Of a stretch of 64,000 nucleotides of DNA, positions 3,162-61,568 are shown one piece after another. The stretch comes from Candidatus Omnitrophota bacterium (lineage in GTDB: Bacteria > Omnitrophota > Gorgyraeia > JABMRN01 > RBG-13-46-9): NCBI GenBank assembly GCA_016782425.1, contig JADHYN010000004.1, positions 9,632 through 73,631 on the forward strand, read 5' to 3'. Every line of letters starts with the position of its first letter. Position 1 is the first letter of the stretch. The notes beneath the pieces were generated by a model that saw nothing but the letters and a program-made list of their open reading frames with translations, had not been told where the DNA came from and did not search any database. The position numbers and the translations under genes were made by a program.

Positions 3162-5066
3162 TTAATCTACCAAGGAAAGTGTGCCAAAGAATATTTTTCC
3201 GGGCTGGCTTGTCGAATCGATCGACCAGGTAAGCTTCTTCGTCTTGTTATTTGCATCCCTGTCATGAATGGAAATCGAAAATCCCGTGTCTTCGCCCTTT
3301 ACGGGCCGGAATCCGTTAATCTCGTCAAACGGAATAGCCATCTCTACGGTATATCCGCCTTTTACGAACCGTACTGCGTATCTGATATTTTCCGGTTCCT
3401 TATTTCTGTATCCCCACGCCCAGATTCGCGAGGTTTCGCCCGGACCGTATGGCGCAACGGCAAACTGGTAATCATAAGCATTTTTGTCAAAGTAATAGCC
3501 GTTTTTATTGACGTCGAAAAATACTTCTACGCAGTCATCCAGATAAATTTTGCCGTTTATCTCGGTACACACTAGTTCGTTATCGCTTACCTTCCCCGCT
3601 ATGTATAAATTTTCCTCATCCCAGCCCAAATAAAATGTGCCGCTTGCGTCAGAATCATCCTTCACATAACCATGGGTTATTTCGACGTTTTTGTTATTCT
3701 TGGTAGTCAGAGTAACCAAAGATGCGCCGTTCCATTCCGATAAATCCCCGTCGATTTTTATTTGCCTCTTTAGTTTCTTTACTTTAACCGAATCATGCGG
3801 ATTACCGGCAAGATAAACTGACTTAGAGGGCTTATACTGCCTCCCGGATTCAAAACCTGCTTTCCTCATGCCGACCTTCACGTACTTATTCTGCATGAAA
3901 TATTTCCAGATAAGGCCGCTGCGGTAGTTTTCTATCATTAAAAGCGTAAGCCCCTTGTCGATCGATATATAGTAACTAGAGACCCAGTTCTCTCCTATAT
4001 TAAAAGCGTCGACGAGGCCATACTTTTTGACGGCCCTGGGGTTTTTCTCATACATCATTCTGTATTCTTTCACGGAAATTTCCGGGGTTAGCGGTATTGA
4101 GCCGCCGACAACGTAAGGCGCAACCGTTCCGTCGTCTATATTCTTTCCCGGTTTTGCGCCGAAAGCCTTATAGCCGCGCGGCGACAAAGATGCGCTAAGC
4201 CCCCAGAATCCCATTTTGTAAGTTTGGTGTTTGTCGGCGTTATCCCTGCAGTATTGCCTGTTCGCCTTAATGGCGACAATCGCATTCTGCCAATAATCGG
4301 CGTATTTATCGTGCTTATCCACGAGGTCCAGCCATGCCAACGGAAATAGATACTGGAAGAGCCCTCCGTCAGATGCGTAGATCAATTCGTAATCGCCGTA
4401 TTTAGAAACAGGCCTTAAAAACGAATCCCAGCAATCTGCGGGAATTGGGTGTGTGGGTGAACCCATGGCCAGAATATAAGAGAGTATCCCTTCTGAAAAC
4501 ACATCTATGCGGGCGAAAAATCCCCTTTCGGGTTTCCAGGCCATTTGCAGAACATTCTCACCGTCTAAAAACCACTGCCAGTCTATTTTTTTGAAGATTT
4601 CATCCGCCAATTTTTCAACTTCTGTTCCTTTGAAATATTCGCCGATGGTTATAACACCTGCCAGGAATAATCCCGTGTCGATTGAGCTTACTTCGCTGGC
4701 CCACATACGCTGGCCTGTATTTTTATTGAAGTAATGATAGGTAAATCCGTGAAATGTCTCGATTTTCCTGAAGGATTTTAAGGCTGTTAACGCCCTCTCG
4801 TACCCCTCTTCCCCCGTAATCCAGCCCCTCTCTATGCCGATCGGAAGGGCCGAAAGCATGAACCCGGCTGCGGCATTGCTGGCAGGCGAACTTCTCTCGC
4901 TCGTATTGGAGGTAAAACCAGTTTTGGGGTTGGTCTCGTTCCAAAAATAGTCAAAGGCTTCTTTTTGAACTTTATCAAGAAATTTTTCGTCGGCTTGAGC
5001 CCCGTTCTCGAAATAAAAAAAACCGACTAAAAAGGCGGTTAAAATTACAAGCACTTTAACAATCAT
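3162..5066 (-). CDS. secreted glucoamylase-like / GH144-type (DUF3131-like) glycoside hydrolase with C-terminal CBM9-like carbohydrate-binding domain
   Basis: Signal peptide. The N-terminal half carries FDYFWNETNPKTGF..ASNAAAGFMLSALPIGIERGWI, typical of the putative beta-glucan hydrolase family. The C-terminal ~190 aa (DGDLSEWN...DDCVEVFFD...W) resembles CBM9. Confidence 0.55.
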   Translation of the reverse strand: MIVKVLVILTAFLVGFFYFENGAQADEKFLDKVQKEAFDYFWNETNPKTGFTSNTSERSSPASNAAAGFMLSALPIGIERGWITGEEGYERALTALKSFRKIETFHGFTYHYFNKNTGQRMWASEVSSIDTGLFLAGVITIGEYFKGTEVEKLADEIFKKIDWQWFLDGENVLQMAWKPERGFFARIDVFSEGILSYILAMGSPTHPIPADCWDSFLRPVSKYGDYELIYASDGGLFQYLFPLAWLDLVDKHDKYADYWQNAIVAIKANRQYCRDNADKHQTYKMGFWGLSASLSPRGYKAFGAKPGKNIDDGTVAPYVVGGSIPLTPEISVKEYRMMYEKNPRAVKKYGLVDAFNIGENWVSSYYISIDKGLTLLMIENYRSGLIWKYFMQNKYVKVGMRKAGFESGRQYKPSKSVYLAGNPHDSVKVKKLKRQIKIDGDLSEWNGASLVTLTTKNNKNVEITHGYVKDDSDASGTFYLGWDEENLYIAGKVSDNELVCTEINGKIYLDDCVEVFFDVNKNGYYFDKNAYDYQFAVAPYGPGETSRIWAWGYRNKEPENIRYAVRFVKGGYTVEMAIPFDEINGFRPVKGEDTGFSISIHDRDANNKTKKLTWSIDSTSQPGKIFFGTLSLVD

Positions 5067-12651: not shown

Positions 12652-14202
12652 CTATTCTTCTTTTTCTCCGAACACCTCGGCTGTGAATATATAAATATCG
12701 CATTCGCCCTTTTTCCAGGCATCGGGTGACATACCTGCCTTGTCACCGCATAGCGAATTCATGAACTGCTCGCGGTTCCAGCCTGCTTCGGTAGCAACCT
12801 GCGGCAGATAAACGCCGCTGGTAAAACCTCTTCTCACGATAACTCCGTGCTTTCCCATTTCTATCACGTCAGGGTTATCGATTTTCTTAAGCGGAGATAG
12901 TGCTGAAATTTCAATGTCTATATCATCCATCTCGTTTAGTGTAACCTGCGGAAATCGCGGATCGCCGGTTGCCGCTTCCACCGCCATATCACGCACTGTC
13001 AGATAAAATGGGCCACGGCCTACGATGTTTCCGATGCAGCCTCGTAGCTGGCCGTGCTTGTGGAGCGTCACAAATCCGCCCATCTCAGCCAATAAGACAG
13101 GATCCGTTTCTTCAACCGGCAGGCGTTTTCTGTTTTTCAGGTAATGCATGATCGAATCCCGTGCCAGTTTCAGCATCTTTTTTCTTTGTACTTCGTTCAA
13201 CATATCATTATCTCCTTTTTCTGACTTTGGCATTTGGCGTTTCGGGCCTAGTTTTGATTTTTTCCGCCCGAGGCGGATCCGCCTTTGGCGGAGATTTTTT
13301 CCGCCCGAGGCGGAGATATTTGATTTAATTATGGCGGCACTTAAATACCCCACTACCCTCCTTTTATCCCAGGTAGTATCTCCTGAATTGGCGTACTTGA
13401 GGATTTCTATCTTGTCGGCTCCGAGTTTTTTGGTCGCGATCATGGTCGCGTACACTGCTCCGTAACCGCACATTAACTGGTGACCTGAAAGCGAACTTTC
13501 GGTGTATAATTTATCGGCATCAAATTCTTCTATTACGGAAATCGTTTTTCTATCCATGCTGTTCGCTTTCTTATACGGCAGGTAGTGCGACATGTCTGTG
13601 CTCGCAACAAGCAAAAAACTTTCTTTGTCTTTTAAGGTGTCGTATAAAGCTTTGCCCAGTATTTTGCAATTCTCCAAATTCTGATCGCCGATTGCGACGA
13701 GAACAATCTTGAAATCGTTTAAAACCGCCTGCAGAAACGGTATTTCCATTTCGATGGAATTTTCTCCCAGAAAAGCGAGGGGTTTGTCATAAATCTTCGG
13801 ATGCGCGGCGATCAGTTGTTCTGTGATTTTTTTATCGATTTCAACAACGCCAAGCGGCGTTTCAATGCCGTCTACATCAAGAACCGCTATGCCGTCATAA
13901 TTCCTTGTGTGGCTGAAGCCTACTACGACAACGGTCTTTATAGTTTGTTTACTGATAGCTTTAAAGCCATAGGCTGCAACGGGTCCCGAATAAACAAAAC
14001 CGGCATGCGGGGATATTATCGCGACAATTTCGCCGTCGATTGAGGGGGGTGTAGCTTTGGTAAGATATGATTGCAGTTCGGCGGTCAAACTTCTTTTTGA
14101 AGCAGAGTACCACCTTCCTGCCAGATCCGCCTTCTTCACTTCGCCCATCGCCGTTCCAGCAAGGAGTGTTGAGGTGATAAGACCGATTAAGATTTTTTTC
14201 AT
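12652..14202 (-). CDS. Memo-like (AmmeMemoRadiSam system protein B) fused in frame to AMMECR1 (protein A), with N-terminal signal peptide
   Basis: Residues after the signal peptide (AGRWYSASKRSL.., SPHAGFVYSG, STDMSHY) are Memo-like. The C-terminal 183 aa (MLKLARDSI..GCIG..GDPRFP..GVYLPQV) are AMMECR1. The track ORF start at 14271 reads through the tRNA, so the real start is taken as ATG 14202. An internal SD plus ATG sits at 13203. Confidence 0.8.
   Translation of the reverse strand: MKKILIGLITSTLLAGTAMGEVKKADLAGRWYSASKRSLTAELQSYLTKATPPSIDGEIVAIISPHAGFVYSGPVAAYGFKAISKQTIKTVVVVGFSHTRNYDGIAVLDVDGIETPLGVVEIDKKITEQLIAAHPKIYDKPLAFLGENSIEMEIPFLQAVLNDFKIVLVAIGDQNLENCKILGKALYDTLKDKESFLLVASTDMSHYLPYKKANSMDRKTISVIEEFDADKLYTESSLSGHQLMCGYGAVYATMIATKKLGADKIEILKYANSGDTTWDKRRVVGYLSAAIIKSNISASGGKNLRQRRIRLGRKKSKLGPKRQMPKSEKGDNDMLNEVQRKKMLKLARDSIMHYLKNRKRLPVEETDPVLLAEMGGFVTLHKHGQLRGCIGNIVGRGPFYLTVRDMAVEAATGDPRFPQVTLNEMDDIDIEISALSPLKKIDNPDVIEMGKHGVIVRRGFTSGVYLPQVATEAGWNREQFMNSLCGDKAGMSPDAWKKGECDIYIFTAEVFGEKEE
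13252..13327. repeat. GC-rich double/triple palindrome element (CCGCC-CGA-GGCGG / CCGCC-TTT-GGCGG / CCGCC-CGA-GGCGG), copy 1
   Basis: ttttgattttttCCGCCcgaGGCGGatCCGCCtttGGCGGagattttttCCGCCcgaGGCGGagatatttgattt. The 40-nt core recurs at 58484-58528. It lies in frame in the Memo-AMMECR1 linker. Confidence 0.85.
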
Positions 14203-14210
14203 AACTTGAT

Positions 14211-14286
14211 TGGTGGACTGGAGCGGAGTCGAACCGCCGACCTCCTCGTTGCGAACGAGGCGTTCTCCCAACTGAACTACCAGCCC
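14211..14286 (-). tRNA. tRNA-Ala (anticodon CGC), CCA encoded
   Basis: The 76 nt fold by hand as a 7-bp acceptor with G3:U70, a D arm GTTC/GAAC, anticodon stem CCTCG/CGAGG with loop TTCGCAA, and a T arm GGCGG-TTCGACT-CCGCT, ending in ACCA. Confidence 0.95.
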
Positions 14287-17997: not shown

Positions 17998-18043
17998 AGT
18001 TTACTTATTGCTACTTACAGCTTATAGCTTACAGCTTATGTAA
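17998..18043 (-). repeat. TAAGNNN heptad array beginning at the stop codon of the upstream gene
   Basis: Minus strand reads TAAGCTG TAAGCTA TAAGCTG TAAGTAG CAA TAAGTAA ACT, followed by GTG (HDAC start). Confidence 0.8.
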
Positions 18044-20533: not shown

Positions 20534-20827
20534 TTTTTCCTCCTTCAATGAGACCCACACTTATGAAAATCGAAGATTTTCGTAAGTGTGTCTTCCGTGA
20601 ATTTCTTCTGTGAATCCTGTTAGAAATATCTCATTTCTAACAGGGTGAAGGGTCGAATTGGACCCCCCCACCACTTTCTAAAATTACAATTTCTTGTTAC
20701 TAAAGGCTTTGTCTCTATTATGATGCACTATCACCACTTTTGTACATAGCATAGAAAGTGGTGGGGGGTAAATTCAGCCATATAACTTACGTCGCTTCGC
20801 TCCGTAAGTTATGGCTTCATTTACCTC
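20534..20827 (-). repeat. three-hairpin intergenic element, copy E1 (central module type B2, plus one extra hairpin)
   Basis: Fills the TPR-stop to exbB-start spacer. Hairpin A 20556-20590, extra hairpin 20616-20644, long hairpin B arms 20652-20680 / 20752-20779, hairpin C 20780-20813. The core is roughly nine-tenths identical (by eye) to 31326-31451. Confidence 0.85.
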
Positions 20828-26434: not shown

Positions 26435-27655
26435 ATGCTCGTTATGGCGCTATTAAACCCGTTAGGACGAGGAGATTCTGAAAGGATCAAGCGAGAACTC
26501 AGCATACTCTACGAGGTATCTAATGCCATGAGGACCACGCTTAAGCTCGACCATATCTTCTACATGATCTTAACTGCTCTTACCTCGCACGAAGGCCTGG
26601 GGTTTAACCGGGCCATGCTTTTTTTGGTAAGCGAAAAAAGCGACTTCCTGGAAGGTAAGATGGGAATCGGGCCCCACTCGGGCGAAGAGGCCGACAGGAT
26701 ATGGAAAGGAATCGAAGAGGCTAAATTAAGCCTGGAGGACCTTCTTAATTCCTATGACAAGTTTAAGCGCGATCCTGAATCAAAATTGAATGCTATGGTA
26801 AAAAGCGTAAAAATCGCCCTTACCGAAGACATGGGCATACTTGCCCTTACGATCCTGGAAGGGATGCCTTTTGAAGTTACTACCGACGAGGCGAAAAAAA
26901 AGGTCTCACCCATAATACAGAATAACTTAAACACGGAATATTTTGTCACGGTCCCGCTAAAATCCAAGAACAAAACACTTGGCGCAATCCTCGTCGATAA
27001 CATATTCACGAAAAAGCCCATCACGAAATCCGACATGCGGATTCTGACCATGTTCGCAAACCACGCCGGGCTTGCGATTGAGAACTCTCGCCTTTACGAA
27101 GAAACCGAGTACCTGTCAAAAACGGACTGGCTTACGAAACTGTGGAATTCCGGAGAACTTCGCAAAAAACTCGAAAAGGAATTGGGGATAAGTAGAGTCA
27201 CGGATAAAAACTTAAGCGTGCTCATGATCGACATCGATAATTTCAAGCCGTATAATGACTCCGTCGGTCACCAGGAGGGTGACGAAGCCATTAAGACAAT
27301 CGCTTCCCACCTCGGCAGTAAGTCCAGAAAAGCTGATTTTGTCGCAAGATACGGCGGCGAAGAATTCACTATCATAATGCCCAATACGCCCAAGCAGGTA
27401 GCGGCGACCATCGCAGAAAGATTACGAAAAGAAATCGCAGGGCTTTTCGCCCAAACAGAAGTTCCGAAAGGAATACCCCATCTGACCGTAAGTATCGGTA
27501 TTTCGACATTTCCTTATGACGGTGGCGACAAAGACAATCTTATACACAGGGCTGACATCGCGCTTTACGAGGCCAAAAAACAGGGTAAAAATAAGGTGTG
27601 TACGTATAATCCGCGTTTAAAAAAGGGTCTCTTCGGGTTTAAAAAAAGGTATTAA
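26435..27655 (+). CDS. cytoplasmic GAF-GGDEF diguanylate cyclase
   Basis: GAF domain (ILYEVSNAM..GFNRAMLFLV), GGDEF with GGEEF and an RKAD I-site. The start may be 26444 if the mRNA is leaderless. Confidence 0.85.
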   Translation: MLVMALLNPLGRGDSERIKRELSILYEVSNAMRTTLKLDHIFYMILTALTSHEGLGFNRAMLFLVSEKSDFLEGKMGIGPHSGEEADRIWKGIEEAKLSLEDLLNSYDKFKRDPESKLNAMVKSVKIALTEDMGILALTILEGMPFEVTTDEAKKKVSPIIQNNLNTEYFVTVPLKSKNKTLGAILVDNIFTKKPITKSDMRILTMFANHAGLAIENSRLYEETEYLSKTDWLTKLWNSGELRKKLEKELGISRVTDKNLSVLMIDIDNFKPYNDSVGHQEGDEAIKTIASHLGSKSRKADFVARYGGEEFTIIMPNTPKQVAATIAERLRKEIAGLFAQTEVPKGIPHLTVSIGISTFPYDGGDKDNLIHRADIALYEAKKQGKNKVCTYNPRLKKGLFGFKKRY

Positions 27656-30600
27656 ACAAGAACTTCTTCTTCCTTGGGTGGAGCCTGATTCCCGCTTTCG
27701 GCGAATTTAACCGACACAATCTTTGAAACCCCCTTCTCCTGCATGGTAATGCCGTATAGAATGTTTGCCATCTGCATGGTCTTTTTGCTGTGGGTAATGA
27801 CTATGAACTGGGAGGTTTTCAAAAATTCCTGCAGTATACGCGTAAACCTGCCGATGTTCGACTCGTCGAGGGGCGCATCGACCTCGTCAAGTATGCAGAA
27901 GGGGCTGGGTTTCACCTTAAATATGGCGAACATAAGCGCTATCGCGGTAAGTGCTTTTTCGCCGCCGGAGAGGAGAAGTAGATTTTGCAGCTTCTTGCCG
28001 GGTGGCCGCGCAACGATTTCAATACCGCTTTCTAAAACGTCCGTTTCGTCCAGAAGGAGAAGTTCTGCATGCCCACCGCCAAAAAGCATCCTGAAATAAT
28101 TCTTGAATTCGACCTGTATCTTCTGGAACGACTCCATAAATAGCTGCTTGGTAGTCCGATTTATCTTTGTTATGGCCCTGTGAAGCGATTCCTTCGCCCT
28201 CAACAGGTCCTCCTCTTGCTGGGTTAAAAACGAATATCGCTCCTCCAGTTCTTTATGTTCCTCGATGGCCACGAGATTCACGGGCCCTAATTTTTCAAGT
28301 TTTATCCTCAAGACCTCTATCTGATTTCGGATTTCTTCGGTGTTTGTTCCTTCCTCAATCTGGATATCCTGGGCCCCTATGTCCACCTTGTAAGCGTCGC
28401 GCATCCTGTCTTTGATGTTAGAGATTTTAAGCTCGCTTTCCCTGTTTTTTATTTCAAGGTTGCGGATTTGATTTCTCAAATTCTCGACGGCGTTTTCCCT
28501 CTCGCGGGAGGCACCTTCTTTATTATGCAATTCCCGAGAAAGCGTCTTTTTGTTCTCGTAAATATCGTTTAGCTTCTCTTTAAGAGATGCTTCCCCATCT
28601 TTCTCGGCTTCTATCTGCTCGGCGAGATCCTTTGCTTCGGTCTCAAGCGCTCTTATCTTTTCTTCAGAGCCCCGAGAGGCCTCTTCTTTACTCGCGTATT
28701 GCTCTTTAACTTCCTCAAGCAGCTTGAGTTCTTTATCCAGGTTTCGCGCTTCGGATTCTTCCGTATCTTTCAAAAATGTGATACCGGATTTTATTTCTGA
28801 TATTTCGAGAATTAGGTCGTTTTTCGCTTTTGTTTTGTTCTGAACCGCTTCTTGCGAAGAAGAAATAACCTCTTGCTCTCGGGCATATTCGCTTTCGTTT
28901 TCATTGAGCGTTACATTTAAGGTCTCACCCCTGGTGGATATTTCACGTATTAATTCTCCCACTTCGTCGATTTCAAGTTCAACGATCGATACCTCTTCTT
29001 TTATTTTTTTCAGGCTGGATTCCGCCGATTCCTTTTTTGACTGCGCGTTGGCCAGTTCGATTTCCTCCTCTTTCAAGCAGTTCTCGGCTGAGACGATTTC
29101 CTGCCTTAGTCCGTTGACGGTATTCTCGCGGCCGGTTTCTTCTGCCTTCAAAACCTTCATCTCTTCCAGGAGGCGAATCTTTTCACCGGCAATCTGTTCC
29201 AGTTTCTTCGCCCTTCCTATGATAGAGGTCGTGGTTTGGTTTTTGGCGGCGGATCCGCCGAAAACATACCCTTTCTCCATGTAAAAACCGTCTTTCGTTA
29301 CTATTTTTATGCCGCCGCCGTTAGCGCTTAATACTTCAGATGCCTTTTCCGCGTTCTCGACTACGTAAACATCGTCAAGGAGGAAATCGGCTAAAATCCT
29401 GTTGGGGTGGTCGATTTTCACAAAGGATAAAAGAAGCGGTATATTTTTCCTCGCCATGATTGCTTTGTGGCGGTTGTATTTTGCGCCGCGGGTGATATCC
29501 TCGTGGATTATAAAATGCGCCGAACCATTATCCCCGAGATACGAAAGGGCCTGCTTAAGAAGTTCTCTATTTTCTACGGTGATTGCCTGTGCCTTTTTGC
29601 CCAGGGCAACCTCCAGGGCTGATTCGTAACCGTTTTCTGGCTCTATCATGTCGGCGACAACGCCGGTTATGCCGCTTAATACGCCTTGCTTTACGCCTTC
29701 CATGATAAATTTGACGCCCTTGTCGAAACCCTCGAAGGTCTCGATCATCTCCTTTAATATTTCTTCCTTAGATTTAAGGGAGATAAGATTGGATTCATCT
29801 TCTCTTATCTGTCTTCTTATATCTCCGAGCGTCTCTTGGTGTAAATCGAGTCGGTCTTTTAGTTCATCGCATGAATTCCGGCGTTTCTCTACCTTGGCGC
29901 TTTTTGTGTTTAGCTCTTTATTTGCCGCTTCGAATAGCGTTTCGGCATTCTTTTTCTCCAGAGATATATTTTCCCTTTCTCCTTCAAGCCTTCTCAGTCT
30001 CAATCTCCTGTTCTGCAAATCTGCGCCCATCTTGATCAATTCGTTCTTTGTTTTTGTCTCGACGGCCAAGAGGTCTACCGTTCTATTCTTGGCGGCTCTT
30101 GTGTCTTTCTGGTGTCTTTCTATTTCGTGCGAGAGGTTCCGTGTGGATTCTTCTTTTTCAATCAGGGCCTTTTCTTTACTTTCCTTCGCGTTCGATATCC
30201 CGTCGAATCGCGCCCTGACAGTCGCGATCTCTTCTTTCTGTAGCTTGATTTTTTCTTTGAGACCGGCAAGTTCTTTCTCGAGGCCTGCCTTGAACTTTTG
30301 AAGGTCGTTAATCCTCTCTGTATTAAGCTCTATCTTGTGTTTGCTCTTATCGACGAAAATAGTGGCATCAGAAAGTTTCTGCTGCATTTCGGTTAAATTG
30401 TGGATTGCATTCTCTAGGTCCTCGCGATATTTGTCGATCAGGGCAAGATTTCCATCAAGTTCGAGCTTCAGGCTATTCTCATCTTGCGAGATGCCCTCCA
30501 AGCGCGTTTTGTTATCCTCGAACTCGAACTCTATATTGCGTAGTTCATATACGGCCATTTTCACGTCCAATTCCTTCATTATTTCGAAGTCATTCTTATA

Positions 30601-31242
30601 TCTTTCGGCTTTTCGCGCATGCCTTTCGATGGAATTAATCTGTCTTCTTACCTCATTTATAATATCGTTTATCCTTACGAGATTATTCTCTGTGTGCTCT
30701 AATTTTCGCAGCGCTTCTCTTTTCTTTGTCTTGTACCTTGTTATACCGCTTGCTTCCTCAAAAATATAGCGGCGCTCTTCCGGTTTTGAACTGAGAATCA
30801 AATCAATCTTGCCCTGTTCGATAATTGAATATGAACTTGTCCCCATGCCTGTTCCCATGAGTAAGGAGGTTATGTCTTTTAATCGAACGGGTGTCTTATT
30901 TAGAATGTATTCACTTTCACCTGAACGGAATAATCTGCGGGTAACGGTAACTTCGTCATAATCGATCGGCAAGGCCTTGTCTTCGTTCGACAGTGTTAGT
31001 GAAACCTCGGCCATGTTTATCGGGTCGATGGAATCGGTTCCGTTGAATATAACATCCTCCATGGAGGCACCTCTTAGTGATCGCGGAGACTGCTCTCCGA
31101 GAACCCATCTTATGGCATCGGATATGTTGCTTTTTCCGCAACCGTTCGGGCCGACGATAGCCGTAACGCCCGGTTCGAACTTTAGCTTTGTCTTGGTCGG
31201 AAACGATTTAAATCCTGTAATCTCCAGTTGCTTGAAATACAT
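27652..31242 (-). CDS. smc: chromosome segregation protein SMC
   Basis: MYFKQLEITGFKSF..GPNGCGKSN, long coiled coils, a hinge, then C-terminal LSGGEKALTAIAL and ILDEVDAPLD. Start set at ATG 31242 behind GAAGGAGG. Confidence 0.95.
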   Translation of the reverse strand: MYFKQLEITGFKSFPTKTKLKFEPGVTAIVGPNGCGKSNISDAIRWVLGEQSPRSLRGASMEDVIFNGTDSIDPINMAEVSLTLSNEDKALPIDYDEVTVTRRLFRSGESEYILNKTPVRLKDITSLLMGTGMGTSSYSIIEQGKIDLILSSKPEERRYIFEEASGITRYKTKKREALRKLEHTENNLVRINDIINEVRRQINSIERHARKAERYKNDFEIMKELDVKMAVYELRNIEFEFEDNKTRLEGISQDENSLKLELDGNLALIDKYREDLENAIHNLTEMQQKLSDATIFVDKSKHKIELNTERINDLQKFKAGLEKELAGLKEKIKLQKEEIATVRARFDGISNAKESKEKALIEKEESTRNLSHEIERHQKDTRAAKNRTVDLLAVETKTKNELIKMGADLQNRRLRLRRLEGERENISLEKKNAETLFEAANKELNTKSAKVEKRRNSCDELKDRLDLHQETLGDIRRQIREDESNLISLKSKEEILKEMIETFEGFDKGVKFIMEGVKQGVLSGITGVVADMIEPENGYESALEVALGKKAQAITVENRELLKQALSYLGDNGSAHFIIHEDITRGAKYNRHKAIMARKNIPLLLSFVKIDHPNRILADFLLDDVYVVENAEKASEVLSANGGGIKIVTKDGFYMEKGYVFGGSAAKNQTTTSIIGRAKKLEQIAGEKIRLLEEMKVLKAEETGRENTVNGLRQEIVSAENCLKEEEIELANAQSKKESAESSLKKIKEEVSIVELEIDEVGELIREISTRGETLNVTLNENESEYAREQEVISSSQEAVQNKTKAKNDLILEISEIKSGITFLKDTEESEARNLDKELKLLEEVKEQYASKEEASRGSEEKIRALETEAKDLAEQIEAEKDGEASLKEKLNDIYENKKTLSRELHNKEGASRERENAVENLRNQIRNLEIKNRESELKISNIKDRMRDAYKVDIGAQDIQIEEGTNTEEIRNQIEVLRIKLEKLGPVNLVAIEEHKELEERYSFLTQQEEDLLRAKESLHRAITKINRTTKQLFMESFQKIQVEFKNYFRMLFGGGHAELLLLDETDVLESGIEIVARPPGKKLQNLLLLSGGEKALTAIALMFAIFKVKPSPFCILDEVDAPLDESNIGRFTRILQEFLKTSQFIVITHSKKTMQMANILYGITMQEKGVSKIVSVKFAESGNQAPPKEEEVLV

Positions 31243-31524
31243 CTTGCCTCCTTCGATGAGCATTGGACTTATGAAAATCTCTGATTTTTATAAGTCCATC
31301 TTCTATGAATTTCTCCTCCGAATGTGCGAATTGAACCCCCCACCACTTTCTAAAATTACAATTTCTTGTCATTAAAGGCTTTGTCTCTACCATAATACAT
31401 TATCACCATTTTTGTACATAGCATAGAAAGTGGTGGGGGGTAAATTCAGCCATACGACTTGCGTCTCTTGTAACCTGGAAATAAAAATTCCTAAACTATA
31501 TATAAACGCAAGTCGTGGCTTCAT
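31243..31524 (-). repeat. three-hairpin intergenic element, copy E2 (central module type B2)
   Basis: Fills the spacer from the MerR-like stop to the smc start. Hairpin A 31264-31298, hairpin B arms 31326-31352 / 31424-31451, hairpin C arms 31451-31463 / 31507-31518. Confidence 0.85.
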
Positions 31525-31740
31525 TTATTTGCCTTTAAGCAGTATTCTCCGTAAAATATCTAGATCCTGAGATGTGTATTCGCGATAGTGGTTTATTGGG
31601 TTCCTGTGGGGTTTTGGAAAAATGCCCTTCGCCTCGTAGTTTTTTATCGTTCCCTTGTAGATGCCCAATATGTTGGCCACCTCTTGAACATTGTATCTCT
31701 TCCTGCCCAATTTGGTTTCTTCATCAACCATCAACATCAC
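31525..31740 (-). CDS. small MerR-type HTH DNA-binding protein (no effector domain)
   Basis: YNVQEVANILGIYKGTIKNYEAKGIFPKPHRNPINHYREYTSQDL matches the MerR N-terminal HTH pattern. Confidence 0.6.
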   Translation of the reverse strand: MMLMVDEETKLGRKRYNVQEVANILGIYKGTIKNYEAKGIFPKPHRNPINHYREYTSQDLDILRRILLKGK

Positions 31741-31779: not shown

Positions 31780-31808
31780 AGTATATACAATTTTGGTATT
31801 GTTGTCAA
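31780..31808 (-). promoter_or_regulatory. sigma70-type promoter of the MerR-like gene
   Basis: Minus strand reads TTGACA-17 nt-TATACT. Confidence 0.55.
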
Positions 31809-50479: not shown

Positions 50480-50890
50480 AATTTATCCCCCCTTCAATGA
50501 GCACGCAACTTATGGAACGAAATGAACATAAGTTGCTGTGCGAATTGAATCCTTGACATTTTGTTCCGAAACAGAATTTATTATTTTTTCAATAGTCTTC
50601 TTTCTTGTATTTCCATTTTTAAATTGTCTTTCCCGCATAAAAGCCTGTGCCCGCGAATTGAACTTTTCATAATAGATTAATTCGATAGGTCGTCTATGCT
50701 TCGTATACTTAACATGTCCACTTGAATGTTCGGCGAACCGTTCTTTTAAGCGATACGTATGGCCGTAATACTTTGTGCCATCGTTACATTTCAAGATATA
50801 AAAATAATAAGTTGTTTTCATAAGCAAAATGTCAAGGATCAAATTTGCGCTTATGATTTATGTCGCATAAATGCGGCTTAAATCATGCGC
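50480..50890 (-). mobile_element. three-hairpin intergenic element, copy E4, carrying a GIY-YIG ORF inside central hairpin B1 (candidate autonomous copy)
   Basis: Hairpin A 50502-50540, hairpin B arms 50541-50559 / 50829-50849 enclosing the ORF, hairpin C 50847-50890 (overlaps the last codons of dapF). 50491-50559 differs from 60834-60902 at 2 of 69 positions. Confidence 0.7.
50510..50821 (-). CDS. small stand-alone GIY-YIG nuclease-domain protein (YhbQ/UPF0213-like)
   Basis: MKTTYYFYILKCNDGTKYYGHTYRLKERFAEHSSG..ELIYYEKFNSRAQAFMRERQFKN carries the GIY/YIG, Arg and Glu/Asn motifs. Start set at ATG 50821; the track begins at an upstream TTG. Confidence 0.8.
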   Translation of the reverse strand: MKTTYYFYILKCNDGTKYYGHTYRLKERFAEHSSGHVKYTKHRRPIELIYYEKFNSRAQAFMRERQFKNGNTRKKTIEKIINSVSEQNVKDSIRTATYVHFVP

Positions 50891-51701
50891 TCATTTGACC
50901 TTCGAAAACGATGTGGGCTTTGCCTTCGAAATAAACATCGTGAAAGTGATTGCGTTCTTTCTTGAAGTAAACATTCAAAATTTCCTTGCTTTTTGTAACA
51001 ACCTTGACGGGCTCTCTTGTGCCGTTTACCAGGTGCGAAATAATGGCCGATGCGACCACGCCCGTGCCGCAGGCTAACGTCTCGTCTTCGACGCCCCTTT
51101 CATAGGTCCTTACCAGAATCGTCGAATTGTCGTTGGAAGGTTCCACGAAATCGGCATTTGTGCCTTCCGGTTCGAACAGCTTATGATATCTTATTTTCGA
51201 ACCCATTTTCTTTACGGGATAATTTTCGATGTCCTTGACAAAGTGTACGGCGTGTGGAACTCCTGTATCGAGTGTATGGACGTTCATAATTGTTTTTCCG
51301 GCTCCGATATTCTGGTCGAGCTTGACATTTTGTGGAGGCGTCATCTTTATCCTTATCAAACCTTTTTTTACTTCTGCTTCCAATGTGCCGGCTTTTGTTT
51401 CTATTTTCATCGAAGCCTTGCACCACTTTTTCTCGTATGCGTAAAGGGCGCTACACCTGATGCCGTTTCCGCACATGGTTACCTCCGAACCGTCGGGATT
51501 AAAAATCCTCATCTTGAAATCGGCGGATTCCGAGTTTTCCAGAACAAGAAACCCGTCGGCACCGATAGAATATTTCCTTCTGCAGGAACGCCTCGCAAAA
51601 TCCGAAAAGTCGCCTATTTTGCTAGCGAGTTTCTTTTCCCTGTTGTCAAGAATCAGAAAATCGTTTCCGCTTGCTACAGTCTTTACGAAATCTACATTCA
51701 T
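50883..51701 (-). CDS. dapF: diaminopimelate epimerase
   Basis: ASGNDFLILD, the two catalytic Cys regions (MCGNGIRC, LACGTG). Confidence 0.9.
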   Translation of the reverse strand: MNVDFVKTVASGNDFLILDNREKKLASKIGDFSDFARRSCRRKYSIGADGFLVLENSESADFKMRIFNPDGSEVTMCGNGIRCSALYAYEKKWCKASMKIETKAGTLEAEVKKGLIRIKMTPPQNVKLDQNIGAGKTIMNVHTLDTGVPHAVHFVKDIENYPVKKMGSKIRYHKLFEPEGTNADFVEPSNDNSTILVRTYERGVEDETLACGTGVVASAIISHLVNGTREPVKVVTKSKEILNVYFKKERNHFHDVYFEGKAHIVFEGQMSA

Positions 51702-52947: not shown

Positions 52948-54273
52948 TTACCTTTTTATCGAAATCCTCGATTTTACGGACACAAGCGGGTCGAGAAGTC
53001 TGGCTATTTCACTGTGTTTGAACTTATTTGAAAATTTCGCCAGTTCCGTGTCTTTCATGCCTTTTATTTTCCTACCTTTATCGAGTGAAAACTTTACAAG
53101 TTTCCCAATGATATCGTGCGCTCTCTTAAACGGGACTCCTTTTTTAATAAGATAATAAACGAGATCCGTTGCGTACAGCGCCTCATCCTCTTCTATTCTT
53201 TTTTTGATAACGCGCCTGTTCCACGCCAGCCTTTCTACGAGCTTCGCCAGAATCTGCAATTCTTGCGCAATTATCTCAAAGGAACTAAAAAGCGGAGGCT
53301 TGTCAAGCTGCATATCCCTGTTGTAACCGAGGGAGAGCCCTTTCATCATCGTCAAGACGCTTATCAAGTTACCGTTTAATGTCCCCGTGTAGCCCCTTAT
53401 AAGCTCCAGCACGTCCGGATTCTTCTTCTGCGGCATAAGGGAACTTCCGGTCGCAAAAGCATCGTCTAGTTCGACAAAGTTAAATTCCTTCGTCGACCAT
53501 ATAATGAGATCCTCGGCCAATCTCGAAAGATGCATCCCGAGAATCGATAGCATCGATAATATCTCAATGACAAAATCCCTGTCGCTAACCGTATCTATCG
53601 GATTTGTCGTCGGTTCTATTTTTATGCCCTTTGCCTCTTTTTTGTAAAGCTTTGCGTCGATTGGGGTTCCTGCCAGCGCTCCCGCGCCCAGCGTCAACTT
53701 CATACTGTTTTTTATATTCTCTAATCTCTTATTATCCCTTTCCAGCATCTCGATGAAACTACCAAGATAATCCGAAAGATACACAAGCTGCGCGTGCTGC
53801 AGGTGCGTGTAGCCGGGAATTATAATTCCCTTTGCCTTTTTGCATACAGTCTTTAAGGATTCCATAAGCGCAAGGGAGAGCCCCTGTATGTTATTCAACT
53901 CGGCGGCGCAGAAAAGTTTCAAATCGAAAAGTACCTGGTCGTTTCTTGATCGTGCCGTATGCAGTTTTAGCGCAAGACTTCCGAGTTCTTTTTCTATGGC
54001 ATTTTGAATATTCGTGTGGATATCCTCTGCCTTCCTGTCGATTGCGAATTTTTTCTTTTCGATCCGGTTGTATATCTTTTTAAGGGCGCTTCCGAGTTTT
54101 TCCGCTTCCTTGTTAGTAATGAGCGAACTCTTTTTCAATATCAAAACGTGCATTATGGATCCCAGGACATCGTATTTAGCAAGCTTATAATCGTAATCTA
54201 TGGATTTTGTAAATTCTTCGACAAGCGGATCTGTCTTTTTTTTAAATCTTCCGCCCCACATCTTCTTAGTCAT
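52948..54273 (-). CDS. argH: argininosuccinate lyase
   Basis: MWGGRFKK N-terminus and the GSSLMPQKKNPD signature. Confidence 0.95.
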   Translation of the reverse strand: MTKKMWGGRFKKKTDPLVEEFTKSIDYDYKLAKYDVLGSIMHVLILKKSSLITNKEAEKLGSALKKIYNRIEKKKFAIDRKAEDIHTNIQNAIEKELGSLALKLHTARSRNDQVLFDLKLFCAAELNNIQGLSLALMESLKTVCKKAKGIIIPGYTHLQHAQLVYLSDYLGSFIEMLERDNKRLENIKNSMKLTLGAGALAGTPIDAKLYKKEAKGIKIEPTTNPIDTVSDRDFVIEILSMLSILGMHLSRLAEDLIIWSTKEFNFVELDDAFATGSSLMPQKKNPDVLELIRGYTGTLNGNLISVLTMMKGLSLGYNRDMQLDKPPLFSSFEIIAQELQILAKLVERLAWNRRVIKKRIEEDEALYATDLVYYLIKKGVPFKRAHDIIGKLVKFSLDKGRKIKGMKDTELAKFSNKFKHSEIARLLDPLVSVKSRISIKR

Positions 54274-54310
54274 TTCTTCCTCCTGCTTATAGCTTATGGC
54301 TTAAAGCTTA
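54274..54310 (-). repeat. TAAGCNN heptad array beginning at the argG stop codon
   Basis: Minus strand reads TAAGCTT TAAGCCA TAAGCTA TAAGCAG GAGGAAGAA ATG(argH). Confidence 0.85.
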
Positions 54311-58479: not shown

Positions 58480-58483
58480 TGTT

Positions 58484-58528
58484 TTTTCCGCCCGAGGCGG
58501 ATCCGCCTTTGGCGGAGATTTTTGATTT
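58484..58528. repeat. GC-rich double palindrome element, copy 2
   Basis: ttttttCCGCCcgaGGCGGatCCGCCtttGGCGGagatttttgattt. The core is identical to 13262-13301. Confidence 0.85.
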
Positions 58529-59807: not shown

Positions 59808-60824
59808 CTACAACAACCCTTCCGTTTCTTCTAACCCGTACATTATGTTCATGTTTTGTACAGCCTGGCCTGCTGCGCCCTTTAATAGATTATCTATACA
59901 GCTTACTACAACTACTTTGTTACCGGTTACTTTAGTCCCGATGTTGCAGAAATTTGTGTATCTTACATCTTTTATTTCCGGAAGCGTGCCTTCATCCATA
60001 ACTCTTACAAACGGCTTGTCCTTGTAAAAATTTTTGTAAACCTGTGTAATCTCTACTATATTAAATTCCTCATTCAAATCCATATAAACCGTTGAAAGAA
60101 TTCCTCTGTTCATGGGAATAAGGTGCGGCACAAATAGAACGTCGACGCCTTTTCTACCGGAAAGCTTGCCTAGCACCATGTTGATCTCGGGCTTATGCTG
60201 ATGCTCGTTGATTTTATATGCTTTAAGATTTTCGTTTACCTCCGCGTGCGAGAGCGCAATGGTCGCTTTTCTGCCGGCGCCCGTAGTGCCGCTTTTTGAA
60301 TCTATGATGATTGTATTTAAATTCACCGCACCTTTTTTAACCAAAGGCATCGTAGCAAGTAGCGCACTCGTCGGGTAACAGCCGGGATTTGCGATTAATT
60401 TGGCACCTTTTATTTTATTCCCGTAAAGCTCTGGCATACCGTATACAGCCTTTCTGATGTTCGCAATGTCTTTATGTTTTATGCCATACCATCTTTCGTA
60501 TTCACCGACTTCCAGTCTATAATCGGCGCTTAAATCGATAACCTTTTTTCCCGCTTCAACGAGCTTCGGCGCTACCGTCATGGAAACCGTATGCGGAAGT
60601 GCAAGAAAAAAGAGATCCGCCTTCTTTATCGCATCCTTAAGACTAGGTTTCTTGCAGACAAGATCAATTTTTTCCGCAAGTGACGGAAAAATATCCGATA
60701 TCGGCAATTCTTCTTCCACTATTGCCTGCAAAACGGCTATTTTAACGTCTTTATGTCCTGCCAGGATTTTTACAAGTTCTTCGCCAGTGTATCCGGTCGC
60801 TCCGATTATACCTACCTTTATCAC
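59808..60824 (-). CDS. argC: N-acetyl-gamma-glutamyl-phosphate reductase
   Basis: KVGIIGATGYTGEEL and the active-site GCYPTS. GTG start behind GGGAGG. Confidence 0.95.
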   Translation of the reverse strand: MIKVGIIGATGYTGEELVKILAGHKDVKIAVLQAIVEEELPISDIFPSLAEKIDLVCKKPSLKDAIKKADLFFLALPHTVSMTVAPKLVEAGKKVIDLSADYRLEVGEYERWYGIKHKDIANIRKAVYGMPELYGNKIKGAKLIANPGCYPTSALLATMPLVKKGAVNLNTIIIDSKSGTTGAGRKATIALSHAEVNENLKAYKINEHQHKPEINMVLGKLSGRKGVDVLFVPHLIPMNRGILSTVYMDLNEEFNIVEITQVYKNFYKDKPFVRVMDEGTLPEIKDVRYTNFCNIGTKVTGNKVVVVSCIDNLLKGAAGQAVQNMNIMYGLEETEGLL

Positions 60825-60991
60825 ATCTTCCTCCCTTCAATGAGCACGCAACTTATGGAACGAAGTGAACATAAGTTGCTGTGCGAATTGAACCCTTGAC
60901 ATTTTCGGAAATCTTCATATGGGAAATGTCAAGGGTATAATTCGACCACATAGTTTACGTCTGCCACCGGGCAGTCGTAAACTATGGCCTC
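60825..60991 (-). repeat. three-hairpin intergenic element, copy E5 (ORF-deleted derivative of E4; 5' leader of the arg operon)
   Basis: Hairpin A 60845-60883, hairpin B arms 60884-60902 / 60927-60945, hairpin C 60949-60986. It retains ATG AAG plus the last 19 codons of the GIY-YIG ORF in frame. Confidence 0.85.
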
Positions 60992-61020
60992 AGTATAGAC
61001 AAAAAAACCCACCCTGTCAA
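60992..61020 (-). promoter_or_regulatory. sigma70-type promoter of the arg operon, abutting element E5
   Basis: Minus strand reads TTGACA-17 nt (GGGTGGGTTTTTTTGTC)-TATACT. Confidence 0.55.
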
Positions 61021-61097: not shown

Positions 61098-61532
61098 TTA
61101 GCGCTTGGAGTATTGAAATCTTTTTCTTGCGCGTTTTCTTCCGTATTTCTTCCTCTCTTTGGCCCTGGGGTCTCTGGTGAGGAACCCCGCTTTCTTTATT
61201 GCCGATTTCTGGTTCTCATCGAACTTGACAATTGCCCTTGAAATTCCGTGTTTAAGAGCCTGCGCCTGTCCGCTGATGCCGCCCCCGTTTAGAGTAGCGG
61301 CAATATCAAGCTTATTTTCGAGCTTCACCGTCTTGATCGGCTGGTTTATGATTAGCCTGTGAGATTCCCGCGGAAAATAATCCTCGAGCGAGCGTTTATT
61401 TACGCGGATCTTACCTGATCCCTCGCGTAAAAAAACGCGAGCTATAGACTTTTTCCGACGACCGACCGTCAGGATAAAATCTGCCTTGGTTTGCGTTTTC
61501 GTCTTTTGCTCTCTTTTCTGTTCGGCTACCAT
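61098..61532 (-). CDS. rpsI: 30S ribosomal protein S9
   Basis: The C-terminus GFLTRDPRAKERKKYGRKRARKRFQYSKR is diagnostic. Confidence 0.95.
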   Translation of the reverse strand: MVAEQKREQKTKTQTKADFILTVGRRKKSIARVFLREGSGKIRVNKRSLEDYFPRESHRLIINQPIKTVKLENKLDIAATLNGGGISGQAQALKHGISRAIVKFDENQKSAIKKAGFLTRDPRAKERKKYGRKRARKRFQYSKR

Positions 61533-61568
61533 TATTCTTCTTCCTTATAACTTAAGGCTTACGGCTTA
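61533..61568 (-). repeat. TAAGNNN heptad array beginning at the rplM stop codon
   Basis: Minus strand reads TAAGCCG TAAGCCT TAAGTTA TAAGGAA GAAGAATA ATG(rpsI). Confidence 0.85.

Follow-up and report, generated by a model that had tools for sequence, protein, structure and literature searches.

What keeps the hairpins of an intergenic repeat paired when their sequence differs from copy to copy, and how does such a repeat come to lie between two genes of one operon? These questions are raised by positions 31243-31524 of a 64-kb stretch of DNA from a Candidatus Omnitrophota bacterium (contig JADHYN010000004.1; the whole stretch is referred to as the window), a region that makes up the entire gap between a gene for a MerR-type protein of 68 amino acids (aa) and smc. 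A preceding description of the letters alone, the sequence-only reading, had seen here the second copy of a repeat with a near-identical centre and two flanking hairpins, A and C, rebuilt by compensatory changes, and had concluded that structure is under selection in RNA or single-stranded DNA (ssDNA). The picture that emerges from our analysis, and that we consider probable though by no means assured, is that positions 31254-31527, here named E2, represent one copy, non-autonomous and devoid of a gene, of a composite hairpin repeat that occurs in Omnitrophota and the hairpins of which would be recognized as ssDNA by a small nuclease of the GIY-YIG family encoded within full-length copies.

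Architecture of E2 and its relatives

The window holds exactly five related elements (E1-E5), the number that had been counted before; all are intergenic and one bears a gene. Together with the parts of E2 they are located as follows, L numbers in the text denoting loci from other genomes and R1 the covariance model of the end modules:

31254-31527, minus strand: E2, gene-less three-hairpin repeat; in gene-strand order C module, central hairpin B, A module
31438-31527, minus strand: C end module of E2; match to model R1 at 31438-31526 (56.9 bits, E 2e-10); outer stem ATTTA/TAAAT with GA/GA loop, then AGCCA/TGGCT, then hairpin C
31455-31463 with 31507-31515: stem of hairpin C of E2, enclosing a loop of 43 nucleotides (nt) at 31464-31506
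31336-31440: central hairpin B of E2 (B2 type), arms CCCCCCACCACTTTCT (31336-31351) and AGAAAGTGGTGGGGGG (31425-31440)
31352-31424: central 73-nt loop of E2, 89% identical to that of E1
31254-31335, plus strand: A end module of E2, of the divergent A' type; CGAT/ATTG as outer stem (31254-57 with 31330-33), GA/GA loop (31258-59, 31328-29), GCAT/GTGC, hairpin A (31264-31298) and 25-nt spacer (31299-31323)
20546-20822, minus strand: E1, the B2-type sister of E2, flanked by a TPR gene and a MotA/ExbB-family gene; C module 76.8 bits
44527-44649, minus strand: E3, short copy of B1 type, A end degenerate
50495-50896, minus strand: E4, full-length copy between dapF and dapA
50510-50821, minus strand: GIY-YIG nuclease gene, 103 aa, single domain, inside the central hairpin of E4
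60838-60995, minus strand: E5, derived from an E4-like copy by internal deletion, located upstream of asd; modules 70.7 and 52.5 bits

The centre of E2 had been judged by eye to be about nine-tenths identical to that of E1, and a blastn alignment gave 90.3% identity over 144 nt (31327-31469 against 20654-20797, E 7e-52); the left flanks (31244-31323 in E2, 20536-20615 in E1) are identical at only 74%. Resolved by segment, the arms of the central stem and the right junction agree at 30 of 30 positions, the central loop at 65 of 73 and the hairpin A region at 24 of 38, and E1 has one additional hairpin at 20616-20644. The 16-mer AGAAAGTGGTGGGGGG occurs four times (in both arms of E1 and E2) where 0.52 occurrences are expected, and none of 100 shuffled sequences reached four. 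When folded as ssDNA, 31243-31530 is stable well beyond shuffled sequences on both strands (z = -8.9 and -10.1). At the base of hairpin A, TGGAC..GTCCA in E2 stands against CACAC..GTGTG in E1, exactly as had been described, and the stem of hairpin C reads CGACTTGCG/CGCAAGTCG in E2 versus TAACTTACG/CGTAAGTTA in E1, with changes on both sides in three of nine pairs and no pair lost. The hairpin C stems quoted earlier for E3 and E5 are correct as well, as are the length of the hairpin C loop of E2 (43 nt, A+T 77%) and the placement of E2 between a MerR-type gene (MerR_1, Pfam E 7.8e-9) and smc (SMC_N).

Further copies were collected by scanning species-representative genomes once with a junction pattern of 20 nt, which yielded 18 genuine copies in at least 10 other Omnitrophota metagenome-assembled genomes (MAGs) in addition to two chance matches; the set derives from MAG fragments, and phylogenetic independence of its copies is not given. 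On the gene strand, all copies are arranged alike: TAA(A/G)TGAAGCC, hairpin C and GGCTGAATTTACCC are followed by hairpin B, and this in turn by GGGTTCAATTCGCAC, hairpin A and GTGCTCATTNAA. When read on the opposite strand, the A module (CAATGAGCAC...GTGCGAATTGAACCC) is a homolog of the C module (AAATGAAGCCA...TGGCTGAATTTACCC), and both form one alignable family; indeed the single model R1 recognizes the two on opposite strands, with about 80 bits in the sense and about 27 bits in the antisense direction. The element therefore has terminal inverted repeats in the form of inverted copies of a module of about 59 nt, each of which holds a hairpin of its own, with the GA/GA internal loops on the strand that reads inward from that end in the 5' to 3' direction.

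The central hairpin B follows a different rule. Its pairing is near-perfect in the clear cases (14/14, 15/15, 12/12, 13/13, 16/16 and 21/22 pairs), to which the count was restricted because unequal runs of C and G upset counting from the ends inward. The pairing and the flanks GAATTnACCC ... GGGTnAATTC are kept and the sequence is free, being wholly different between subfamilies (TTGACAT, CCACCACTTTC, CACACCAA, CACACCCAGCA, TGTTAAAT, AGCACTTATTTT and others). The B2 subfamily comprises E1 and E2 together with L002, L005, L010, L015 and L017, and the 73-nt loop is present in E1 and E2 only. The A' variant of the A module, which keeps the outer stem, the GA/GA loop and the 4-base-pair (bp) stem and has a 25-nt spacer after the hairpin, is found in E1, E2, L010, L015 and L038; R1 scores it with only 17-23 bits in L010 and L015. 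Units without a gene measure 125-280 nt and contain three hairpins.

Smaller palindromes were seen within some copies. At L012, one outer central stem, CCCTGTTAAAT, is common to two copies (420-470 and 4180-4230), and in each it encloses two small hairpins whose pairing is kept despite sequence change (AATTTCGC/GCGAAATT and GCCGC/GCGGC in one, AATCCCGAC/GTCGGGATT and CCGCC/GGCGG in the other). A small GC-rich palindrome (CCTGCCTGCC...GGCAGGCAGG) occurs in loops or junctions of A modules in three MAGs (L005 ~1975-2000, L011 ~4810-4855, L023 ~1885-1910), which suggests a further tiny element nesting inside A-module hairpins.

Covariation of the stems and the choice between DNA and RNA

The covariation check proposed along with the earlier description was carried out on a model-fitted alignment (A4) of 44 end modules from the window and the at least 10 other MAGs, comprising 18 pairs and 791 cells. 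Pairing amounts to 97.2% of the 791 cells, and 13 of the 18 pairs show changes on both sides (145 cells). The covariation score is 0.54 compared with 0.18 after shuffling, and none of 500 shuffles reached 0.54; when the partner columns are slid against each other, pairing falls to 19-37%. An independent MAFFT alignment of 24 modules again gave 97.2% paired, with double changes in 11 of 18 pairs. Since pairing and covariation hold on 44 modules, the hairpin formed in a single strand is a conserved feature, and covarying pairs are thus present in the larger set.

Which strand, and which nucleic acid, is another matter. The sequence-only reading had hoped that tolerance of G:U pairs on one strand would decide between RNA on the minus strand and DNA. 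After one alignment artefact column had been set aside, the mismatches comprise about eight G·T and about eight A·C, each close to 1% of the 791 cells and without difference between module types, and so give no signal of RNA. Among five A'-type hairpins, G·T lies on the gene-antisense strand in three and on the gene strand in none. The unpaired parts are more telling. The outer internal loop has GA opposite GA in 38 of the 44 modules, and the GA strand is the opposite one at the two ends of an element. An apical motif of the form GA-2 bp-loop (3-5 nt)-2 bp-GA(A), frequently with CGAAG or GCGAAGC, is present in 16 of the 44 modules on the sense strand and in none on the reverse complement. Because A and C lie on opposite strands, one transcript cannot carry both sets of purine loops, and this arrangement together with the lack of a wobble excess favours ssDNA hairpins, placed symmetrically about the element, over a structure in mRNA. 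Of the alternative left by the earlier description, RNA or ssDNA, it is therefore the latter that is favoured over minus-strand RNA, and the element is probably not an RNA regulator. For annotation, a caution follows: even strong covariation of an intergenic hairpin is by itself no proof of RNA.

Other assignments were tried and dropped. Within the element, only weak promoter matches (9/12) occur, not above the level of shuffled sequences, and one weak terminator-like call was obtained, for hairpin A on the antisense strand; the idea that the centre acts as a promoter was discarded. An open reading frame (ORF) of 45 aa at 31387-31524 is not conserved; from the same start, E1 reaches a stop after three codons. 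A group I intron, a small ribozyme and an integron attC site were discarded on the grounds of the small size of minimal copies, the lack of an Rfam match, the inverted DNA symmetry of the ends and the core nature of the flanking genes. Neither a scan of the window at the Rfam gathering threshold nor a permissive scan of 31200-31560 assigned the element to a family, and the latter returned only chance matches to miRNA-precursor hairpins.

Insertion at gene junctions

The immediate surroundings of E2 are as follows:

31525-31731, minus strand: 68-aa MerR-type gene, upstream of E2; PF13411, E 7.8e-9; 100% identical to P0035; synteny in 42 loci
31247-31251, minus strand: Shine-Dalgarno sequence GGAGG of smc, immediately past the A end of E2, as read from the sequence
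27652-31242, minus strand: smc, downstream of E2; its true start is the ATG of MYFKQLE at 31240-31242
31780-31808, minus strand: operon promoter TTGACA-17-TATACT (11/12 matches), upstream of the merR-type gene and kept in L036 and L038

As the promoter lies upstream of the merR-type gene, E2 is situated inside a transcription unit. The pair of merR-type gene and smc is conserved across Omnitrophota, in 42 orthologous loci, mostly with a gap of 6-20 nt, and only two of the 42 lineages have the element, namely the organism of the window (gap of 282 nt) and L038 (230 nt). An empty site is offered by L036, where the MerR protein is 84% identical to that of the window and the gap is 8 nt (AAAGTAGGAGGGGCAATG), with stop codon and Shine-Dalgarno sequence abutting (TAGGAGGGGCAATG). 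Its absence from most orthologous sites identifies E2 as an insertion. The earlier argument that paired substitutions reflect selection on structure thus holds on 44 modules, but its rider that this is not just repeat spread needs refinement, because the element also spreads by insertion.

The position of insertion is precise. E2 sits exactly between the stop codon of the merR-type gene and the Shine-Dalgarno sequence of smc, and the terminal bases of its C module supply the TAA stop of the former. In 24 of 26 copies, the C end is located at or overlaps the upstream stop, often TAA or TGA inside TAAATGA, and the A end lies 0-16 nt before the downstream Shine-Dalgarno sequence or start; at the insertion sites the element ends with TAA(A/G)TGA on the left and CTCATTNAA on the right. 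Co-orientation with the flanking genes is equally strong (24 of 26 scorable copies, the other two being inverted). The plus-strand GC skew is uniformly negative in the window and nearly all genes are on the minus strand, so that this bias does not separate the direction of transcription from that of replication.

The gap between merR-type gene and smc contains unrelated small palindromes in other lineages. In L038, the space separating etfA from the merR-type gene contains about 600 nt of nested long palindromes (1895-2500); neither the window nor L036 has these, and the gap there measures about 100-140 nt.

Mosaic copies

Different parts of one copy have different closest relatives. The centre of E2 matches E1, while its A' and C modules, including the unusually long C loop, are about 72% identical to the copy at the orthologous site in L038; the C module of E1, on the other hand, is 94-96% identical to copies in other MAGs. 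Likewise, E4 and E5 share an A module with 96% identity and have very different C modules (50495-50552 versus 60838-60895 and 50836-50896 versus 60933-60995). To judge from these sequences, swapping of parts among dispersed copies is a better account of the near-identical centre and the differing ends than is a rebuilding of stems in place. Compensated change is nevertheless seen at orthologous sites: hairpin C of E2 and that of L038 differ by three compensated stem pairs (CGACTTGCG/CGCAAGTCG versus CAACTTACA/TGTAAGTTG). The compensated pairs of the sequence-only reading are real, then, and it was in-place rebuilding that had been overstated, the copies being mosaics.

A GIY-YIG nuclease gene inside the central hairpin

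The gene inside E4 belongs to an ORF of 110 aa that matches PF01541 with residues 12-80 (E 5e-12) and is 100% identical to P0001; its 3' end runs through the B arm into the A module. All six distinct GIY-YIG-bearing elements examined (among them E4, L023, L031, L032 and L087) have the gene between B1 arms, with C upstream and A downstream, the A end being degenerate in L032. The common frame is C module, CCCTTGACATTTTGCC, ATG...gene...GGCAAAATGTCAAGGG, A module. These elements reside in a NiFe hydrogenase operon (L023), between ispH and rpsA (L032), between QueC-like and ThiI-like genes (L031) and between yceD and rpmF (L087), and all four are co-oriented with their neighbours.

The proteins of the family consist of a single domain of 92-103 aa; the core of the homologs comprises 88-103 aa, and longer forms are produced by read-through into the repeat. 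The C-terminal tails of the 34 homologs found first are mostly KCQGFNS and otherwise QNVKDS or K(M/T)SR(I/V), and all three types are one and the same DNA, CAAAATGTCAAGG(G/A)TTCAATTCG (right arm and junction), read in three frames. Correspondingly, the N-terminal extension LTLDILLM of many homologs is the translated left arm. That tails and extensions are read from one DNA in different frames places the constraint on the nucleotides and makes the association of nuclease and repeat essentially obligate. Annotation should hence allow for the possibility that C-terminal tails of the KCQGFNS kind and extended neighbouring ORFs result from read-through into repeats.

The short copies can be traced to the long ones. 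E5 aligns to both ends of E4, and one clean gap of about 255 nt removes the ORF but leaves the 3' arm and the ATGAA start region in place (alignment A7); E5 is thus E4 minus the ORF, and the short copies are deletion derivatives.

Starting from a Sphingomonas homolog, a profile search retrieved 3039 relatives; the named ones among the best 120 are all from Omnitrophota, and these 120 contain no bridge to SsnA of Neisseria. The best plasmid match to the E4 nuclease is a GIY-YIG protein of Sphingomonas (43.8% identity, E 3e-10). Plasmids or chromids of this genus have small GIY-YIG genes in housekeeping operons (L085 1495-1815, L086 1500-1870), one at an nrdR/RNA methyltransferase gene site and the other at rnc-era, with an in-frame stop. 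At L019 (5403-5618, minus strand), about 1 kb from a copy of the element and adjoining a tRNA-like sequence, lies another, distinct small GIY-YIG gene (MWYVYFLKS...), whose product shares 37% identity with the window protein.

Proposed explanation and alternatives

The explanation that we regard as probable runs as follows. By analogy with the Ssn nucleases discussed below, the GIY-YIG protein would recognize the hairpins as ssDNA and in a strand-specific manner, and this recognition would keep the stems paired and account for the compensatory changes. Copies may spread or swap parts via nuclease-triggered repair or recombination between dispersed copies, and such an exchange would explain why E2 shares its centre but not its ends with E1. 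E2 itself encodes nothing and would be a passive passenger in the merR-smc transcript.

Several points weigh against this explanation. To our knowledge, a GIY-YIG hydrolase can neither rejoin DNA nor carry out strand transfer, so that spread to new sites is not accounted for. The same holds for the 73-nt loop common to E1 and E2, for which the other MAGs sampled contain no homolog. For every GIY-YIG variant only one locus was found, which gives no sign of recent activity. No NCBIfam model matches the E4 nuclease, the nearest solved structures of which are the UPF0213 proteins 1ywl (1.8e-12) and 1zg2. The SRM consensus of the Ssn system, HGTCWYN(0-2)YYVSBRHN(0-5)WNVSBRGN(0-2)RNCYNB, has no match on either strand of the window (0.1 in shuffles). 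No consistent target-site duplication was detected when the flanks of 28 copies were inspected by eye and empty and filled sites were compared, and the strong co-orientation with transcription would fit a role at the level of RNA, too.

This last point leads to the possibility of a structured intercistronic RNA, the hairpins of which act in the operon mRNA, in processing, stability or translational coupling, such that selection on RNA causes the covariation. The exact location at gene junctions, the position of E2 inside the merR-smc transcription unit and the strength of the covariation are all in keeping with it, and GA/GA and GNRA-like apical loops are typical of RNA as well. What makes it unlikely in our view is that the ends are inverted, so that the GA strand corresponds to the mRNA for C only and module A would show UC/UC loops, that G·U pairs are as rare as A·C (about 1% each) and show no enrichment, and that in A'-type hairpins G·T is found on the antisense strand in three of five and on the gene strand in none. 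Moreover, most orthologous sites do without the element and have a gap of 8-20 nt, no Rfam match is obtained even at permissive thresholds, the association with a gene for a DNA nuclease is obligate, and two copies are found in the opposite orientation. A conventional transposase encoded elsewhere, which would move the repeat as an ordinary MITE (miniature inverted-repeat transposable element) and leave the GIY-YIG gene as a passenger in some copies, would agree with long terminal inverted repeats, dispersed short copies and presence or absence at orthologous sites, and from general enzymology it would supply the strand transfer of which a GIY-YIG hydrolase alone is incapable. Against it stand the missing target-site duplication and the fact that neither the 64 kb of the window nor some 300 kb of related loci contain a transposase-like ORF bounded by modules; furthermore, the only coding version found carries GIY-YIG, and the B1 arm is in the reading frame of nearly all of the 34 homologs found first. 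We therefore hold this origin, too, to be improbable.

The paired changes could also have arisen without any selection on structure. Intrastrand template switching is an established mechanism for the correction of quasi-palindromes, and in a decaying repeat it would copy changes from arm to arm. The changes being nearly always Watson-Crick on both strands without wobble bias, and the occurrence of differences in contiguous blocks (e.g., CAC..GTG versus TGG..CCA), are what such copying would produce. However, GA/GA loops, a TA bulge, junctions and apical motifs are conserved even though identity of the flanking proteins between the MAGs is only 60-85%, and module sequences are 94-96% identical between different MAGs. 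Template switching would erase asymmetric loops and not keep them, and we consider it very unlikely as the explanation.

If hairpin recognition by the GIY-YIG nuclease is retained as the preferred explanation, a bolder version of it can be put forward, which we offer only tentatively and rate as rather doubtful: the family might be an autonomous mobile element of a kind undescribed in prokaryotes, a unit of about 450 nt with a single gene, the product of which, a GIY-YIG nuclease of minimal size, would act upon ssDNA hairpins in the inverted ends of the element itself. Such a unit would target stop/start junctions within housekeeping operons, leave MITE-like deletion derivatives and swap its central hairpin cassette among dispersed copies through repair triggered by the nuclease; were this so, it would reveal how hairpin repeats of the Ssn/NTS type multiply.

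Other features of the window

The following features lie apart from E1-E5:

14214-14286, minus strand: tRNA gene, the sole Rfam match at gathering threshold in the window
13258-13319 and 58482-58523: 42-nt unit TTTTTTCCGCCCGAGGCGGATCCGCCTTTGGCGGAGATTTTT, 100% identical at both places
60667-60692: related single hairpin
18001-18038, 54273-54310 and 61531-61568: three or four tandem octamers that contain GCTTA (TAAGC every 8 nt on the gene strand)

The 42-nt unit, with twin small GC hairpins between runs of T and A, is an unrelated second repeat and looks like a two-way terminator. The GCTTA octamers occupy short intergenic gaps, those at 54273 end directly at a Shine-Dalgarno sequence, and they could be a protein-binding leader motif.

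Comparison with known systems

The literature on GIY-YIG proteins with MITEs, palindromic repeats or UPF0213, and on repeats of Omnitrophota, was not found to describe this family. Dispersed extragenic hairpins that are recognized as ssDNA, as those described here would be, have compensatory stems, flank a single small enzyme gene and cause no target duplication are also a hallmark of REP/REPIN-RAYT and IS200/IS605 systems. The enzyme of these, however, is a Y1 HUH transposase with a covalent intermediate, whereas that of the Omnitrophota element is a GIY-YIG hydrolase, and the end hairpins of IS200/IS605 are on the same strand whereas those described here are on opposite strands. No HUH protein was found, the protein associated with the element being GIY-YIG, and in view of this and of the opposite strands of the hairpins the element belongs to neither group. 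With Correia/NEMIS and ERIC MITEs, it has in common that short non-coding units form long imperfect palindromes with inverted ends, lie intergenically in transcription units and include internal-deletion derivatives; it differs in having neither target-site duplication nor transposase partner, for which reasons it is not a classic MITE, and in having a covarying hairpin inside each end. Free-standing GIY-YIG homing genes of T4-like phages (I-TevI, Seg, Mob) also lie between conserved genes without disrupting them, but their products are enzymes of 200-250 aa with a separate DNA-binding domain, and they have neither structured inverted repeats nor gene-less multicopy derivatives. The single-domain protein of 92-103 aa therefore sets the element apart from homing genes of the I-TevI/Seg type.

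The closest known system is that of the Ssn ssDNA nucleases with their NTS/SRM hairpin repeats. SsnA is a single-domain GIY-YIG protein of 94 aa that binds the directional hairpin repeat NTS/dRS3, generalized as SRM (Chenal et al., Nat Commun 2025, PMC11893778). It cuts only ssDNA and only one strand, next to hairpin repeats, and acts neither on double-stranded DNA nor on RNA; the ssn gene is often flanked by repeats, and these occur in hundreds of copies per genome (PMC11893778). Its discoverers note a likeness to insertion sequences and to REP/RAYT, and leave open the mode of spread and the mobility of gene and repeats (PMC11893778). The Omnitrophota family likewise combines a single-domain GIY-YIG protein of about 94-100 aa with hairpin repeats that flank the nuclease gene on the 5' and 3' sides and with many gene-less intergenic copies. 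A palindromic core with directional flanks is also common to both: ATT..CCC-stem-GGG..AAT of Ssn resembles GAATTnACCC-stem-GGGTnAATTC. The differences are considerable, though. The unit without gene consists of three hairpins and 125-280 nt compared with one hairpin of 20-50 nt, the gene is situated inside the central hairpin, the end hairpins are inverted on opposite strands, and the copies are placed precisely at stop/start junctions of housekeeping operons. In addition, the nearest solved relatives of the E4 protein are UPF0213, and it may belong either to the Ssn clade (cd10448) or to the neighbouring UPF0213 clade.

Hairpins of the Ssn kind exist in the phylum. Matches to the SRM consensus were found in other Omnitrophota loci only, the clearest being NTS-like hairpins of L057 and L077. 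Those resembling the canonical NTS of Neisseria (TGTCATTCCCGCGAAAGCGGGAATCTAT) lie at L057 1378-1405 and L077 1347-1374, in the same kind of site. The gap between merR-type gene and smc in L057 has a hybrid appearance, in that a C-type end in reduced form (AATGAGGCC-ATAA-GGCCGAATT) is followed by two inverted NTS-like hairpins and then GTGCT. The motif TTCGACTTCGCTCAGGG, present in the corresponding gap of another Omnitrophota genome (L050 1687-1753), recurs in near-identical form in the long hairpins that flank a Sphingomonas plasmid GIY-YIG gene (L085 1380-1460 and 1780-1810), and is thus a hairpin repeat that crosses phyla.

GIY-YIG-linked hairpin repeats were recognized only in 2025, and the Omnitrophota family bears on the question of how such repeats multiply. 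One and the same genome contains full-length copies as well as deletion derivatives, close relatives have cleanly empty sites, the element is inserted at a fixed position where two genes meet and with a strong bias in orientation, and mosaic copies point to exchange between elements. Its hairpins are natural candidate ssDNA substrates, matched with a small nuclease, and could widen the range of specificities of this enzyme class.

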